DNA of 6,249 nt from Escherichia coli (GTDB lineage: Bacteria; Pseudomonadota; Gammaproteobacteria; Enterobacterales; Enterobacteriaceae). Numbering within the stretch: position 1 is the first letter of the stretch; every line of letters starts with the position of its first letter. The stretch lies in the NCBI RefSeq assembly GCF_003334785.1, contig NZ_QOWV01000039.1, one strand, 5' to 3'. The position numbers and the translations under genes are program-made. Below the pieces are notes generated by a model. That model was not told where the DNA came from. It was given only the letters and a program-made list of their open reading frames with translations, and did not search any database. Of this stretch, positions 50 to 6,249 are shown one piece after another.

Positions 50-379
50 TCACCAATAAATAAGCGTCAATACGGTGCTCCGTTGACGCTTACAGAGAAT
101 GCGTTTGACCGCCTCGCTATATACTTCCGAGCGTTCTCTTTTCCCAACAGAAATCACGAAAACGACAACTTTCTCGTCTATAACCTGGTATACAAGGCGA
201 TAGCCTGAAGACCGGAGCTTAATCTTGTAACAATCAGGCATACCACGGAGCTTGTTTGCTTCAATCCGGGGTGACTCAAGTACTTCAACCAGCTTCTTTT
301 TCAACTGTTCACGTACCGTCGAGCCCAGCTTTCGCCATTCCTTTAGTGCCCGCTCGTCAAAATCCAGAAAATACGCCAT
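50..379 (-). CDS. relE: RelE mRNA-interferase toxin (RelE/ParE family), 109 aa; first 95 aa match E. coli RelE as recalled, followed by a 14-aa C-terminal extension
   Basis: Translation MAYFLDFDERALKEWRKLGSTV...VYSEAVKRIL is recognisably RelE; start codon shares one base with the relB stop (TGATG); the gene sits directly downstream of relB on the same strand. Confidence 0.9.
   Translation of the reverse strand: MAYFLDFDERALKEWRKLGSTVREQLKKKLVEVLESPRIEANKLRGMPDCYKIKLRSSGYRLVYQVIDEKVVVFVISVGKRERSEVYSEAVKRILCKRQRSTVLTLIYW
53..91 (-). terminator. Stem-loop (9-bp stem 62-70/83-91, inner CGG/CCG pairs) followed on the minus strand by UAUUUAUU; probable terminator or mRNA fold at the relE 3' end
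   Basis: Inverted repeat AAGCGTCAA...TTGACGCTT read directly; U-rich tract follows on the minus strand. The extended relE ORF reads through it. Confidence 0.4.
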
Positions 380-618
380 CAGAGTTCATCCAGCGTCACA
401 CGTACTGGCTTAGGATTACGAAGCCGTTCTTTCACTATCTCCACAAGTTCAGCATCTTCATCACTCAGGAGTGTCTGTTTGAACGGCAAGCGTTCATTGT
501 CAGCGATATACTCGAGCATGAGACGAAGCGCTTCAGAAGGAGTTACACCCATTTTTTCAAGCGCGGCGTAAGAACGCGCTTTAAGTTCATCGTCAATACG
601 CAGGTTAATGCTACCCAT
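379..618 (-). CDS. relB: RelB antitoxin, 79 aa
   Basis: Translation MGSINLRIDDELKARSYA...PKPVRVTLDEL matches RelB as recalled; GAGGTG Shine-Dalgarno about 6 nt upstream of the ATG; overlaps the relE start. Confidence 0.92.
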   Translation of the reverse strand: MGSINLRIDDELKARSYAALEKMGVTPSEALRLMLEYIADNERLPFKQTLLSDEDAELVEIVKERLRNPKPVRVTLDEL

Positions 619-700
619 GTCTTACACCTCTTGTAATTACAAATGTCATTACAAGTATCGCACTACAACATGCTTAGGGCAAGTCACGAAGGAAGTCAGA
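619..700 (-). promoter_or_regulatory. relBE promoter region with relO-type operator (perfect 12-bp palindrome TTGTAATTACAA at 631-642, plus partial repeat to 655)
   Basis: Palindrome read directly, immediately upstream of relB; consistent with RelB/RelE autoregulation at an operator overlapping the promoter. Exact -35/-10 positions not resolved by eye. Confidence 0.6.
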
Positions 701-948
701 AAGTAGTCGTAAGAACGGTGATCACTGTCCGCTTTGTGCCAGGAGCAGCCATTGCTAAGTCCATCCTGTATTGTGCAGGTCAGCTCGTTTTTAAAGAGTC
801 CGGCCATCATCTTACTGGTACAGACACCATATACTTTGTGACGGTCAGGCTACATATGCACAACTCAACTTATTCATCTATTTTTTGCTTTAGCATGTCA
901 GTGTTGCTTTCTCGTCGGCGGGTGAGCGGTGACCTGACCTGTCGATAA
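643..948 (+). CDS. ydfV: Hypothetical protein, 101 aa, in the position and of the size of E. coli ydfV (divergent from relB)
   Basis: ORF of the expected length between relB and flxA; no recognisable Shine-Dalgarno; the start lies inside the relO operator. Protein sequence not independently recognised. Confidence 0.35.
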   Translation: MSLQVSHYNMLRASHEGSQKVVVRTVITVRFVPGAAIAKSILYCAGQLVFKESGHHLTGTDTIYFVTVRLHMHNSTYSSIFCFSMSVLLSRRRVSGDLTCR

Positions 949-1150: not shown

Positions 1151-1483
1151 ATGTCTGTCACAATTCAGGGAAATACCTCAACCGTTATTTCAAACAACTC
1201 CGCCCCGGAAGGAACATCAGAAATAGCCAAAATCACAAGACAAATTCAGGTGCTGACTGAAAAGCTTGGGAAAATCTCATCGGAAGAGGGGATGACGACA
1301 CAGCAGAAAAAAGAAATGGCTGCATTGGTACAGAAGCAAATTGAAAGCCTCTGGGCTCAACTGGAGCAGTTGTTAAGGCAGCAGGCAGAGAAAAAGAATG
1401 AAGACGCGACAGTTCAGCCTGATAAAAAAGAAGAGAAAAAAGACGATACAAATACCGCTGGCACCATTGATATTTACGTCTAA
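1151..1483 (+). CDS. flxA: FlxA-like protein (FliA-regulated), 110 aa
   Basis: AAGGAG Shine-Dalgarno about 6 nt upstream of the ATG; translation MSVTIQGNTSTVISNNSAPEG... with a Q/E/K-rich coiled-coil-like centre; gene order relB-ydfV-flxA as in the Qin prophage. Confidence 0.85.
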   Translation: MSVTIQGNTSTVISNNSAPEGTSEIAKITRQIQVLTEKLGKISSEEGMTTQQKKEMAALVQKQIESLWAQLEQLLRQQAEKKNEDATVQPDKKEEKKDDTNTAGTIDIYV

Positions 1484-1570: not shown

Positions 1571-3419
1571 AGTTAACATTACAAGATATAAGTAATGGAC
1601 GCACTCCCAATTAGTCTATTTAAATCGCCACGAGTTTAACTGACAACCCATGATCAATTATGAATTGCAACTATTTCTGTAGTCACTTTTGTGGGGACAG
1701 TCCACAAAACTGCCAACTTCCGCTTCTTGCTCTTAGCGGACATTAGCATAGGCTATTTACCATAACGCCTCATTACGCGCACCGCCCAGACTGACTCAGC
1801 GCGTTTCTGGCATATCCCCGGTAAAACAAGTAACAAACCACCCGAAAATGAACACCAGAAACGCGACTTAAGAATCTACCCTATGAATGGATATGCACTC
1901 AACCGAATCGATCTTGGTTTCAATCTTTTTTATCGGGATCAGGCTTCTTTTTAGGTAACTTCGGGGGCTTAACTTGCTGATGACTTTGCGTTCGGCGCGT
2001 AAGCCAGGGATGGTCAGCTTTAGGTTTAACATAGTATTTTGAGCGTAAATCAATACGGGCATTATCCACTCGTTCATGGACACTCTTTTCATCATCCAGT
2101 GGTATAGGCTCCGGGCCATCAACATACTTTTCCCAGCCCAGCGCTTTCCCGTCATACAGAACGTTAATTTCACCGTCAAAGTTCTCGCATACAGTAACAA
2201 CCGAATGCCTAAGTCGATATCCCCGGCCCTCACTGCGTACCTGAAACGCACTGCTTTTGTACTGGAAAGTGAGATTTTTAGACAGAACGCGCTTCGCCTG
2301 TAGGCTGAAGATATAACCCAGTTCCTCTTCAGAATGGTGCACATCAAGATGAGCATTATCAGTAGTACGAGGCGACGTAGCGAACCGGTTGTTATAGGCT
2401 TCAATAAAGGTCGGCAACCATGCATTTGCTGTTTCAATATCACTGATATTCTGAAGCCGCATTTCTTTGACCAGCCTGTCCTGTAGTGTCTGATTGGCGC
2501 GCTCTACCCGCCCTTTTGCCTGCGGGCTGTTGGCATGGATTGGCTCGATGCCCAGTGTCTTTATCGCACGAGTGAACTGGGTCAGCTCACCTTCCCGCTC
2601 TGGGTTATTTACCCTGAATATACTGTGTCTATCAGAGTAGAGAGCGAGCGGTACGCCATGATCATTAAGGTAACCCCGGAGGGTTTCCATGTAAGCCCGG
2701 GTTGTTTCAGCAGGCACAAAACGCAACGCCATCAACGCACTGGTGGCATCATCAATGAAAACGATCAGTGTACATCTGGGGCCTCGATTTTCAAACCAGT
2801 CATGAGGTGAGCCATCAATCTGGATCAGTTCACCGTAAGATGGTCGTCGCATGCGGCGTTGATATATACGGGCAATTTTACGACGGCGTTCACGCCATAA
2901 CCCCTCTTCTATCATCCACTTTCTGAGAGTTTCAACGGATAAAGATAAACCGTGTATCTCGCGCAATTTTTCGCACGCAAACGTAGGTCCAAAATCAGCG
3001 TAACGGCCTTTGAGGAGTGAAATTACTGTTGCTCTGAATTCAGTAGAAAAGGAATTATTAGGACGCTTTCCACGTCGGTGGGAAACCAGACCAGAAGGCC
3101 CTTCATTTCTATACCGTTGCACCAGACGTTTAACCTGCCGAATAGAAATGCCAATGCGTGCCGCAGCTTGTTCCTGAATAATCTGAAGTCGGTGGAGTTC
3201 CTTATGACTCATCGTAACAGTCTCTTTGATCATGAAAAATCCCCCAGAGAATTGTCTGGGGACATTTTAGAATGGTTCAAAGGGGACATTACAGCTTGGT
3301 GTTAACAATAGCCTGCTTCTCCGTGCCTTTCGGCACGTAAGAGGCTAACCTACATGTGTCTAGCATGAAATTGGCCTCAGATTAATGTTAAGCGTCTTGC
3401 AGGACGCGTAATGTTAACT
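1571..3419 (-). mobile_element. ISNCY-family (IS1202-group-like) insertion sequence; boundaries tentative
   Basis: Boundaries are placed at a perfect 12-bp inverted repeat (AGTTAACATTAC at 1571-1582; GTAATGTTAACT at 3408-3419) bracketing the transposase gene. No target-site duplication was found and a 12-mer match could arise by chance in 6 kb. Confidence 0.35.
1920..3233 (-). CDS. ISNCY-family DDE transposase (IS481/IS1202-like), 437 aa
   Basis: N-terminal helix-turn-helix (AARIGISIRQVKRLVQRY); integrase-type catalytic core with D in IQIDGS, D in FIDDATS and E in SPQAKGRVERANQTL; lysine/proline-rich C-terminal tail. An alternative ATG at 3212 (MSHKEL...) is in frame. Confidence 0.9.
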   Translation of the reverse strand: MIKETVTMSHKELHRLQIIQEQAAARIGISIRQVKRLVQRYRNEGPSGLVSHRRGKRPNNSFSTEFRATVISLLKGRYADFGPTFACEKLREIHGLSLSVETLRKWMIEEGLWRERRRKIARIYQRRMRRPSYGELIQIDGSPHDWFENRGPRCTLIVFIDDATSALMALRFVPAETTRAYMETLRGYLNDHGVPLALYSDRHSIFRVNNPEREGELTQFTRAIKTLGIEPIHANSPQAKGRVERANQTLQDRLVKEMRLQNISDIETANAWLPTFIEAYNNRFATSPRTTDNAHLDVHHSEEELGYIFSLQAKRVLSKNLTFQYKSSAFQVRSEGRGYRLRHSVVTVCENFDGEINVLYDGKALGWEKYVDGPEPIPLDDEKSVHERVDNARIDLRSKYYVKPKADHPWLTRRTQSHQQVKPPKLPKKKPDPDKKD

Positions 3420-3567
3420 GGGGCTTTTCTCTATCTGCCGTTGGTGTCCATGCCCGAGGCAGATAGCCTCAAGCACCCGCAGTCATTCTACTTAACTAAG
3501 ATTTCCCCGCAAACCGTTTTTGTCCAGCACAGTAAATATCCAACTAAACCAATGGAGTTCGCTGTAT

Positions 3568-3747
3568 TTACCGCCAGTATTCAATGCACATGACCGCCAT
3601 GAACACCCCTAAAAAAAGGGCATTTATATATCCAAATATTAATATCAAAACATCAACTTTTTCCATATACCTTGCTGTGAAGATGATGGGCATACATGAT
3701 GCGAACAACCAGAACGCAACAAACAAAAACTGCAATGCGTTTTTCAT
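3568..3747 (-). CDS. Small hydrophobic membrane protein, 59 aa, two predicted transmembrane helices
   Basis: Consensus AGGAGG Shine-Dalgarno 5 nt upstream of the ATG at 3747; translation MKNALQFLFVAFWLFASCMPIIFTARYMEKVDVLILIFGYINALFLGVFMAVMCIEYWR. The ORF-track version (start 3786) has no ribosome-binding site. Confidence 0.45.
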   Translation of the reverse strand: MKNALQFLFVAFWLFASCMPIIFTARYMEKVDVLILIFGYINALFLGVFMAVMCIEYWR

Positions 3748-4001
3748 TATTCCTCCTACAATCAATGTGCAATTACATTTAAACACACCTCAATTTGGCC
3801 GGACATATAAATATCTAAACCAGAAAAAATCACTTACATAGCGTTACAAACTCTTTAGTCTAAAGGTTCATCGTAAAACATTCCCCATACTTATCAGTCC
3901 GTTCCGCGCCAGGTAGCTCATTGCCTTATCTGGCAACCTGTAATCAGGTTTCCGCTTTTTCAGTTGGCTGGTCGTTTAACCGACATAGTTAATCCATTAA
4001 T

Positions 4002-4289
4002 CTAGTTGCCGGATGTTGGTGGATTTTCGCGTTTTAGTTGTTCATAAAAGTGCACAGCTTTAACCAGTTCTTCTGATGTAACTGGGACTGGTGAGGCAGT
4101 GAATAAGGCCTGAATTTGATAGTTCGGCCTGTCGTTACAATCCTCTTTTTTCGGTACATATTTCCAGTCACCAGACCACTACTTCCCCTGAAAGTCCGTA
4201 ACGCCTTTTTTCACGTAGCGATATCGCCATGCCACTGGTTTTGCTTGCCCCGCCGTTTCATGCCCTTCCTGATAATTAATCTCGCTCAT
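4002..4289 (-). pseudogene. Small prophage-like ORF (about 95 codons) interrupted by an in-frame amber codon at 4179-4181
   Basis: Reads MSEINYQEGHETAGQAKPVAWRYRYVKKGVTDFQGK-TAG-WSGDWKYVPKKEDCNDRPNYQIQ...; its ATG overlaps the TGA of the upstream ORF (ATGA). Confidence 0.25.
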
Positions 4290-4477
4290 TCATCGCCCCA
4301 CTCATCACAATATGCTTCGACCGGAGTTTTTCCCGCTTCATAGTCATCACGCTAGGATTCGACATCAGCAGCACTTCCACCGCGTAACTCACCATAGTCC
4401 ATTAATAGTTCATCCCGCTCTTCAAAACTGATGTTATATTTAGCTGAACAAAAATCAGCCACTTTGTTCTTCCTCAT
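4286..4477 (-). pseudogene. Small acidic ORF (about 63 codons) interrupted by an in-frame amber codon at 4352-4354
   Basis: Reads MRKNKVADFCSAKYNISFEERDELLMDYGELRGGSAADVES-TAG-RDDYEAGKTPVEAYCDEWGDE; an internal GTG at codon 6 is preceded by GAGGAAG; stop overlaps the next start. Confidence 0.2.
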
Positions 4478-4899
4478 CGTCTTTTATTTCGTGGTATGAG
4501 TAATTGCAGTAGTTAAAGAAAATTTCTTATGCTCCGTCATGAATTTCCTCAGGTGTTGCGTCATCGTCCACTTCGAATACATCCTCAAAATCTCCACCAG
4601 CTATTCCCGTTTCAATAATAATTTTGAACTTTCGCATTTCACTACCGCCCTTTCGGGCGGCCTCCTGATGTTCTGAGGGTGCAGAAATCCATCCGGTTAA
4701 GGATTAAATTTTATTTACAGAACTGAATTTAATTATTCAGATATACGTATCTGTAGCCTTACGAATCTACTCACTGGATGCCTCTTTCATAAAAATAATC
4801 CAGTGGGTTTTATCGTTTTTTCCCTGTTCGTTGACAGATAACAGGTTTTCTGTCTGTCAGTGCCAGAATCTGGCTTACCGGTATTTGCGTTTCATTCCA

Positions 4900-5256
4900 T
4901 TAAAAAATCAGAACGCCGTGCGGCCTCAACACCCGAAAGGCTTCTTTAAATCTCTGTCGCGAATCATCACGCCAGGCATCTTTATTCAGCCGTCCATATT
5001 TCTTTCCCATCCAGGCGTTATCACCAACACTCTCAAGATGCGGAGGGTCTAATACAACCATCGAAAAAGATGCGTCTGCAAATGATAATGCACGAAAATC
5101 TGCGATAATGTCAGGGCTGATAATCAAGCGTCTCCCATTGCGTAATGTGTATCCTTCTTTTCTGATATCGCTGAATATCGCCCGTTCGTCAGACTTATCG
5201 AACCAGAACATGCGGCTGCCACAGCACATATCAAGAATGGTTGCCGGTGCACTCAC
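4900..5256 (-). CDS. Putative SAM-dependent methyltransferase (motif I ILDMCCGS; motif IV VVLDPPH), 118 aa; probably cut short by a premature TAA
   Basis: GTG start overlapping the stop of the upstream ORF; motif I and a DPPH motif about 55 residues apart, as in small N6-adenine/N4-cytosine-type methyltransferases; after the TAA at 4900-4902 the same frame stays open 29 codons (WNETQIPVSQILALTDRKPVICQRTGKKR). Confidence 0.6.
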   Translation of the reverse strand: MSAPATILDMCCGSRMFWFDKSDERAIFSDIRKEGYTLRNGRRLIISPDIIADFRALSFADASFSMVVLDPPHLESVGDNAWMGKKYGRLNKDAWRDDSRQRFKEAFRVLRPHGVLIF

Positions 5257-5892: not shown

Positions 5893-6249
5893 CGGACACT
5901 ACCATTTGTTCTTTTTTTAAGCAGCCATCTGATGATATTTTTCCCTGAAGGCTGCCGGGGAGATATTCCCCAGACGAGAGTGACGACGCTGACGATTGTA
6001 GAAAATCTCAATGTATTCCCGTATTACTGAGATGGCTTCATCCCGGTTATTAAAACGATAGTGGCTCAGGCTCTCATTTTTCAGCGTTCCCCAGAAGCTT
6101 TCCATCGGAGCGTTGTCGTAACAGTTACCTTTACGCGACATTGATGTTTTCAGACCAAACTGCTCCTGTATGACCCGGTAATCGTATGCGCAGTACTGTG
6201 AACCTCGATCGGAGTGGTGGATTAGCACGGCAGGTGGGCGCTGGCTCCT
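5874..6249 (-). mobile_element. IS3-family insertion sequence, partial (continues beyond window); terminus near 5874-5900
   Basis: Transposase OrfB C-terminus ends at 5917; the adjacent GGCAATAGCGGACAC (5885-5899) resembles the IS3 terminal repeat as recalled (GCAATAGTGGACAC). Exact terminal base uncertain by about 10 bp. Confidence 0.6.
5917..6249 (-). CDS. IS3-family transposase OrfB (integrase core), C-terminal part; 5' end lies outside the window
   Basis: Translation ...VLIHHSDRGSQYCAYDYR...MSRKGNCYDNAPMESFWGTLKNE...YNRQRRHSRLGNISPAAF carries the IS3-family DDE-region signatures (HSDRGSQY; KGNCYDNAPMESF); the frame stays open to the window edge. Confidence 0.9.
   Translation of the reverse strand, partial: RSQRPPAVLIHHSDRGSQYCAYDYRVIQEQFGLKTSMSRKGNCYDNAPMESFWGTLKNESLSHYRFNNRDEAISVIREYIEIFYNRQRRHSRLGNISPAAFREKYHQMAA

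Follow-up and report, generated by a model that had tools for sequence, protein, structure and literature searches.

What are the short direct repeats just upstream of a transposase gene in the Qin cryptic-prophage region of Escherichia coli? The DNA analyzed here (6,249 nucleotides of contig NZ_QOWV01000039.1, assembly GCF_003334785.1; hereafter, the window) was recognized as part of Qin from its open reading frames (ORFs) and from the RefSeq annotation of near-identical DNA. On its plus strand, the sequence GGGGACATT occurs at 3258-3266 and again at 3282-3290, with a start-to-start spacing of 24 bp and at 25 and 57 bp from the ATG of the transposase gene (3233, minus strand). A preliminary description of the window had reported these coordinates and distances, all borne out by our check of the sequence, and had proposed that the pair are transposase-binding subterminal repeats or promoter/operator elements of an insertion sequence (IS). 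It overlooked that the motif belongs to a minus-strand terminal inverted repeat (IR) with its tip at 3307. We conclude with good confidence that the tandem copies are the conserved recognition-repeat cores of the end of an ISEsa1-like, IS1202-family transposon (left inverted repeat, IRL; 3307-3258, minus strand). Their position, their conservation and what is known of the family suggest that they are most likely paired transposase-binding sites. The features concerned are:

1920-3233, minus strand: transposase gene, 437 amino acids (aa), ISNCY/IS1202 family, ISEsa1-like
3258-3281, minus strand: inner repeat of the IRL, TTTGAACCATTCTAAAATGTCCCC; contains the 3258-3266 copy (IR positions 42-50); direct repeat D6
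3282-3307, minus strand: outer (terminal) repeat of the IRL, TGTTAACACCAAGCTGTAATGTCCCC, tip at 3307; contains the 3282-3290 copy, that is, AATGTCCCC at IR positions 18-26
3308-3322: target-site duplication, IRL side, 15 bp; ATAGCCTGCTTCTCC on the plus strand, GGAGAAGCAGGCTAT on the minus strand
3308-3478, minus strand: apparently orphaned hok/sok leader; Rfam sok (RF01794), 104 bits, full model, ending at 3307

Read on the minus strand, GGGGACATT becomes AATGTCCCC. The tandem pair is embedded in a longer direct repeat (D6, 3258-3276 versus 3282-3300; 19 nt, 79% identity), and the full repeat consists of two ~24-bp units, each ending in AATGTCCCC, that fill the terminal 50 bp of the element. 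The outer repeat matches the family consensus, TGTYARCSCAAAGYAGWAATGTCCCCTT, at 25 of 28 positions. Homology among copies from E. coli, Salmonella, Enterobacter and Klebsiella runs up to 3307 and is followed by divergence (3307/3308). In an E. coli genome without the element (L005; L-numbers are labels of the loci and records compared with the window), position 3308 is joined directly to the hokD start codon. The 15 bp next to the tip comprise the hokD Shine-Dalgarno sequence plus the AT of the hokD ATG. The RF01794 match and the contiguity with hokD in the empty site identify the DNA beyond the tip as a hok/sok leader; to judge from these alignments, the transposon has cut this regulatory leader off from the hokD coding sequence. 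Coordinates from plasmid BLAST matches suggested an IS reaching 3378. This boundary was rejected, the extra 70 bp being hok leaders whose sequence differs between records. L004, L140 and L141 share a stretch of 11-12 nt, (A/T)TGTATGGGTC(C), that leads up to the IRL tip; farther out, their DNA differs.

The preliminary description had proposed comparing the motif with other members of the IS family. A species-representative genome collection was scanned with the transposase alignment, yielding 80 loci. Both ends could be defined in 17 relatives (44-62% transposase identity; gamma- and betaproteobacteria, Chloroflexi and others), whose inverted repeats fit TGTYARCSCAAAGYAGWAATGTCCCCTT; perfect target duplications of 15 or 16 bp are found in 10 of the 17. 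The first 64 nt of every end were aligned for information content. Two conserved blocks stand out on either side, at positions 1-26 and ~33-51 of the left ends (peaks at 18-24 and 42-48) and at positions 1-27 and ~37-53 of the right ends (peaks at 18-24 and ~43-51). Beyond both blocks (past ~52) the information content is about zero. Counted from the left tip, a core, [A/G]TGTC[C/A], begins at positions 19 and 43 in 13 of 17 relatives, the second of these cores being present in 14; counted from the right tip, the end of the core falls at 24 and 49/50 in 16 of 17. The same core is rare elsewhere inside these elements. The window's left end fits the two-core layout exactly, so that the tandem copies do occupy fixed positions near the ends of the element and its relatives.

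The other end of this transposon is not where it had been placed. The preliminary description assumed an IS spanning about 1690-3300; the real right end lies ~1.7 kb further left, outside the window, because the end of an IS66-family element has inserted at the relE stop codon. Between this junction and the transposase gene lie four cargo genes, identified as ORFs and by RefSeq annotation of identical DNA:

1-92: terminal part of an IS66-family (ISEc47-like) element, its insertion point being exactly the relE stop codon; L001 homology starts at 93
93-379, minus strand: relE
379-618, minus strand: relB
643-948, plus strand: ydfV
1151-1483, plus strand: flxA

The right end of this element, TGTCAACGCAAAGCAGAAGTGTCACCTT, is found beside the hokD start codon (L001 1535-1562; ATCC 8739, K-12 and several plasmids). 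This sequence agrees with the family consensus in 26 of 28 positions and with the left end in 19 of 26, and carries a second core at 43-51. A right end near 1690-1720 was also considered; its best ungapped match to the left end is only 13/22, and the repeat beside hokD was preferred. In an 88%-identity relative (L014), a right-end candidate (6655-6682) has an IR score of 18/28, and a target duplication was not found there. The IS66 insertion changes the relE stop from TGA to TGT, giving an ORF (50-379) of 109 aa with a 14-residue tail, and the IS66/relE junction was found in no complete E. coli genome of the collection examined.

The mobile unit so delimited measures 3274 bp (3301-3302 bp in copies that keep a 27-bp transposase segment; see below). 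Its order is IRL, transposase, cer-like site, flxA, ydfV, relB, relE and right inverted repeat (IRR), with the four cargo genes sitting between the two ends in L001, L007 and L008. Perfect 15-bp duplications of the unit occur in three different hok start regions. In Qin, GGAGAAGCAGGCTAT flanks both ends in L001, L002, L091 and 26 viral-collection contigs and is present once in the empty site; GGAGAAGAAGGCCAT flanks the unit in the hok gene of an Enterobacter asburiae IncF plasmid and TGGAGGGGCTATGAT in that of a Salmonella IncI plasmid. Altogether, at least five different hok leaders were found to carry the unit, each time at the same position. One viral contig (L093) has the full unit in a non-hok site, flanked by only a 6-bp repeat, CGCCTT. 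In L008 and L133 the hok flanks of the two ends do not match, which suggests recombination between copies in different hok loci.

Just outside the target duplication on the IRL side (window 3323-3327) lies a G(G/T)CAA-like pentamer. It reads GGCAC, GGCAA or TGCAA in most hok insertions (window, L007, L008, L006, L142), and, of the 10 distant relatives whose duplications are perfect, five (L011, L012, L025, L028, L037) have GGCAA or GTCAA and two more have GCAGT. The pentamer resembles the right tip of the element, TGTCAAC, and its recurrence suggests a target-recognition rule. On the transposase strand, the IRR tip (L001 1535-1540) is TTGACA, a perfect and conserved -35 hexamer, and IRL positions 15-20 (window 3293-3288) are TGTAAT. 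Speculatively, abutted ends with a ~3-bp spacer would give a TTGACA-N17-TGTAAT junction promoter of the sort seen in IS3, IS30 and IS21 circles.

Could the inner copy owe its presence to something other than recombination? In transcripts of the transposase strand it would form one arm of a hairpin:

3236-3268, minus strand: RNA hairpin, AAAAUGUCCCCAGA / UCUGGGGGAUUUU; the 5′ arm is the inner motif

Within the 3′ arm lies a Shine-Dalgarno-like GGGGGA (3245-3240), 6 nt before the AUG at 3233. The predicted fold energy is -22.5 kcal/mol (z = -1.9), and the U-run next to the structure led the scan to flag it as terminator-like (3262-3241). In most relatives, too, the left-end core farthest from the tip pairs with purine-rich sequence immediately before the start codon, and L041 and L053 have a compensating change (CCCC to CCGC in the core, GGGG to GCGG in the partner). 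The U-tail, the Shine-Dalgarno-like sequence in the 3′ arm and the recurrence of the pairing would fit an inner copy that matters at the RNA level only, as the arm of a hairpin masking the ribosome-binding site (RBS) or terminating transcription, its likeness to the outer copy being secondary. However, right ends conserve the inner core to the same degree (~43-51 bp from the tip) with no RBS partner available there, and the outer core is without a complementary partner. RNA pairing therefore cannot explain the whole pattern, and we consider it rather unlikely to be the sole function of the inner copy.

The location of the repeats upstream of the ATG also bears on the alternative that they are promoter/operator elements of the transposase gene, under control of the host or of a repressor, rather than recombination sites. 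Many IS elements have their transposase promoter within the left inverted repeat, and here the sequence TAAAAT (3269-3264, minus strand) abuts the 5′ side of the inner core and shares its first three bases. Yet a consensus scan identified no sigma-70-like promoter on the minus strand of 3234-3307, and the right end, which has no gene to control, shows the two-core layout as well. The promoter/operator reading of the preliminary description is thus unlikely, although the inner copy does join an RBS-covering hairpin and a regulatory function could be an additional role of the repeats.

From the recognition-repeat reading, then, we infer the following scheme. The N-terminal helix-turn-helix region of the DDE transposase would recognize each ~24-bp repeat, and two protomers would load per end to form a higher-order synaptic complex, as at the ends of Tn7, Mu and IS21; the right end would present the same two-site layout in inverted orientation. 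The synapsed ends would be cut at the terminal TGT and joined to the target with a 15-bp stagger. In RNA, the inner copy would pair with the transposase ribosome-binding site in a terminator-like hairpin, which may block or terminate read-through transcripts entering from outside the element.

The affiliation of the element rests on both protein and ends. Its transposase matches NCBIfam NF033594 (ISNCY family) with 456 bits (cut-off 250) and its homologues carry HTH_23/28/29/32 plus rve_3 domains; it is a DDE transposase homologous to those of the IS1202 family, with an N-terminal helix-turn-helix region. By the published description of the family, both terminal inverted repeats of IS1202-family members start with 5′-TGT and have a second conserved block around position 20. 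Here the IRL reads TGTTAAC...AATGTCCCC (block 18-26) and the IRR TGTCAAC...AGTGTCACC. The outer copy is an already known feature of the family; a second inner repeat, at 42-50, is not described in the available portions of bioRxiv 10.1101/2022.12.17.520857 or PMC10132070. The tandem motif itself is the ordinary recognition core of the inverted repeats of a known IS family. Within the family, Siguier et al. (bioRxiv 10.1101/2022.12.17.520857) assign direct target repeats of 15-17 bp to the ISTde1 subgroup. Three independent perfect 15-bp duplications, and those of 15 or 16 bp in the relatives, place the element and its relatives there. It does not belong to the Xer-targeting ISAba32/ISAjo2 subgroup (5-6-bp duplication; IRL 5 bp from the XerC arm of a dif-like site), because its duplication is 15 bp long, its IRL is flanked by a hok leader and its cer-like site is internal, toward the opposite end and away from the insertion point.

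Copies of the transposase are annotated in RefSeq, on many plasmids, as "IS1202-like element ISEsa1 family transposase". In the part of PMC10132070 that tabulates the ISfinder entry, ISEsa1 is 1609 bp long with a terminal inverted repeat of 15/22, no target-site duplication and a 439-aa transposase. The transposase of ISEsa1 is nearly identical to that of the present element and the left end is the same; the 1.6-kb definition stops at what we read as a vestigial right end, whereas the consensus right end and the 15-bp duplications appear only with the 3.27-kb unit. The region concerned contains the third, more distant copy of the motif, GGGGACAGT, which the preliminary description had correctly placed within a palindrome (inverted repeat I7, with a hairpin fold):

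1687-1709: palindrome, TTTTGTGG-GGACAGT-CCACAAAA, 8-bp stem (I7); holds the 1693-1701 copy
1711-1748, minus strand: hairpin, AATGTCCGCT...AGCGGAAGTT; includes the one-mismatch match GCGGACATT at 1736-1744
1755-1783, minus strand: cer-like XerC/XerD core, GGTGCGCGTAA-TGAGGCG-TTATGGTAAAT; accessory homology to ~1865

The hairpin at 1711-1748 is kept in ISEsa1 copies (L010, L004) and in the 88%-identity relative. Homology with the ISEsa1 copies lying next to ncr genes stops at ~1712-1715, within this hairpin, which we read as the probable vestigial, truncated remnant of an older right inverted repeat. Measured from the IRL tip, this point lies ~1596 bp away in the window, and ~1620-1630 bp away where the 27-bp segment is present. 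The ISEsa1 definition thus appears to stop at a truncated, vestigial right end (window ~1712-1735), which would explain why no duplication was detected. In many Klebsiella and Enterobacter plasmids and in one genome (L004, L009, L010, L140) the 1.6-kb transposase part adjoins the nickel-resistance genes ncrABCY. No consensus right end was found beyond the ncr genes at a score of 17 or higher in L010 or L090, and none within ~6 kb. The ncr context is probably one rearranged arrangement that spread and not a separate transposon.

It would be tempting to regard the 1693-1701 copy as a functional third binding site, or as the right end of a 1.6-kb IS. Eight of its nine positions agree with the motif, and it lies ~15 bp past the point where ISEsa1 copies lose homology, close to where the ISfinder element would end; furthermore, the minus strand of 1720-1693 matches the left-end consensus at 15 of 28 positions (manual count). 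However, its orientation relative to the IRL is direct, not inverted, and at IR position 19, an A or G in relatives, it has C. Beyond its 9-mer it bears no resemblance to the consensus, matching at background level. The ncr-context copies (L004, L010), which diverge at ~1712-1715, carry an unrelated sequence, TATATATA, in place of the palindrome, showing that the third copy is specific to the cargo. Finally, the 1.6-kb ISEsa1 has no recorded target duplication in the table cited above, and the 3.27-kb unit has perfect ones. A function for this copy at a transposon end is quite improbable. The binding-site proposal of the preliminary description thus holds for the two tandem copies, whose positions are kept in relatives and which would bind the transposase, and fails for the one at 1693, which lies in cargo DNA in the wrong orientation; this copy is not part of the binding-site architecture and may be due to chance or be a relic.

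The preliminary description also held that the copies exceed chance expectation, and they do: GGGGACA occurs 3 times on both strands of the window, the expected number being 0.57, and a count of 3 came up in only 1 of 200 dinucleotide-preserving shuffles. If one mismatch is allowed in the 9-mer, GCGGACATT becomes a fourth match (4 versus 1.24 expected; 9 of 200 shuffles reached 4), so that the enrichment is only modest once distant copies are counted. That the repeats are a functionless chance repetition, a reading to which a short motif and this modest figure might lend themselves, is already refuted by the comparative data, core positions being constant in the 17 relatives from several phyla even though the intervening bases vary.

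Several points weigh against the interpretation of the tandem copies as active recognition cores with a regulatory hairpin. The z-score of the hairpin is only -1.9. Three relatives (L029, L032, L037) are without a recognizable inner left-end core, hence the second left-end site is not universal. As for the window's own copy, compared with the common 446-aa form (L004, L006), its transposase is without 27 bp (9 aa), in frame, at 3172-3182, between two TCCTGA repeats; the lost residues belong to an N-terminal region that relatives keep, and therefore the protein may be defective. Together with the separation of this copy from its right end by the IS66 element, the loss suggests that this particular copy is probably immobile.

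If the repeats are the end of a larger transposon, much of the surrounding organization can be read jointly. We think it somewhat more probable than its converse that "ISEsa1", instead of being a 1.6-kb IS without target duplication, constitutes the portion with the transposase gene of a 3.27-kb ISTde1-subgroup cargo transposon; that this transposon, which makes a 15-bp duplication, prefers to insert into the Shine-Dalgarno/ATG region of hok-family toxin genes, directly on the 3′ side of a GGCAA-like motif; that one such insertion made the relB-relE-hokD (relBEF) operon of K-12 and orphaned the mok/sok leader of hokD; that YdfW is the last 49 codons of the transposase; and that the ATGTCCCC core serves both as transposase site and as anti-Shine-Dalgarno arm of a conserved fold-back hairpin. 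In K-12, the 49-aa "protein YdfW" corresponds to the last 49 codons of the transposase ORF (1920-2069, minus strand). K-12 homology to the window ends at 2104, where ydfX starts, indicating that K-12 retains only the 3′ part of the transposase gene, the cargo and the right end.

These results suggest that relBE, a classic toxin-antitoxin pair of the chromosome, reached the Qin prophage and several plasmids as the cargo of a transposon aimed at hok start regions. Such an origin would account for hokD (relF) being transcribed together with relBE and having no regulatory leader of its own. Ramisetty and Santhosh reportedly described, in 2016, an integration of relBE into hokD. What goes beyond the literature found is that ISEsa1 is redefined as one part of a cargo transposon having a 15-bp duplication, that insertions of it recur at one position in five or more different hok leaders, and that relBE, by implication, entered Qin as transposon cargo; the literature searched contained no report of relBE as IS1202/ISNCY cargo or of hok targeting. 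ISEsa1-like elements thereby gain proper ends and a 15-bp target duplication where published tables list none. Annotation could be corrected accordingly, ydfW being a transposase tail and the "ISNCY transposase" genes part of a larger mobile unit. For footprinting, the layout of two sites per end, kept across phyla, provides a well-defined target.

The transposon carries its cer-like site internally, past the stop codon of the transposase gene and ahead of the vestigial right end. Thousands of small ColE1-like plasmids have cer regions with 75-82% identity to this stretch, which was aligned with that of pLP5-1-3kb; the arms of the core are presumably those bound by XerC and XerD, as judged from dif and cer sequences. 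A possible ArgR-box-like sequence, TATGAATGGATATGCA, occurs at ~1883-1898. With relBE and a cer-like site, the cargo looks like a plasmid-maintenance set.

To the right of the transposase gene, the window contains a methyltransferase gene and then an IS3-family transposase fragment, a C-terminal portion at the window's right edge (5917-6228, minus strand). Small ORFs at 3600-4900 are pseudogenized, the reference strain annotation listing frameshifts and internal stops in this interval. A perfect 12-nt inverted pair (1571-1582 / 3408-3419; I11) coincides with a boundary in no comparison and was treated as chance.

How does this element compare with known systems? In IS10 and IS50, transcripts initiated outside the element fold so that inverted-repeat sequence pairs with the start region of transposase translation. 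The hairpin described here is alike in that it would act as a fold-back against read-through transcription. It differs in that the 5′ arm is the core of the putative transposase site itself and in that the hairpin also resembles an intrinsic terminator. The ends of Tn7 (TnsB sites), phage Mu (L1-L3 and R1-R3) and IS21 (multiple terminal repeats) carry several direct transposase sites each, the outermost abutting the cleavage position. The present element likewise has directly repeated putative transposase sites at each end; unlike those systems, it has two sites per end, with a spacing of 24 bp on the left and 25 bp on the right, and encodes no accessory proteins, and we do not claim that it is a member of any of these groups. 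Harmer and Hall 2023 (PMC10132070) align the catalytic regions of IS1202-family transposases with TnsB.

Relative to the IS1202 family as characterized so far, the element is unusually large: members of the ISTde1 subgroup measure 1.3-1.5 kb, as opposed to 3.27 kb here, with relBE, ydfV, flxA and the cer-like site. In the available parts of the two family papers (bioRxiv 10.1101/2022.12.17.520857; PMC10132070), site-specific targeting is attributed only to the subgroup with 5-bp duplications, at Xer sites, whereas this element recurs in hok translation start regions. Type II toxin-antitoxin passengers are also carried between the ends of Tn3-family transposons (PMC7157771), and "transporter IS" such as ISKpn21 similarly hold passenger genes. 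The present transposon differs from both in belonging to another transposase family, in combining relBE with a cer-like multimer-resolution site, and in having a toxin gene, hok, as its target.

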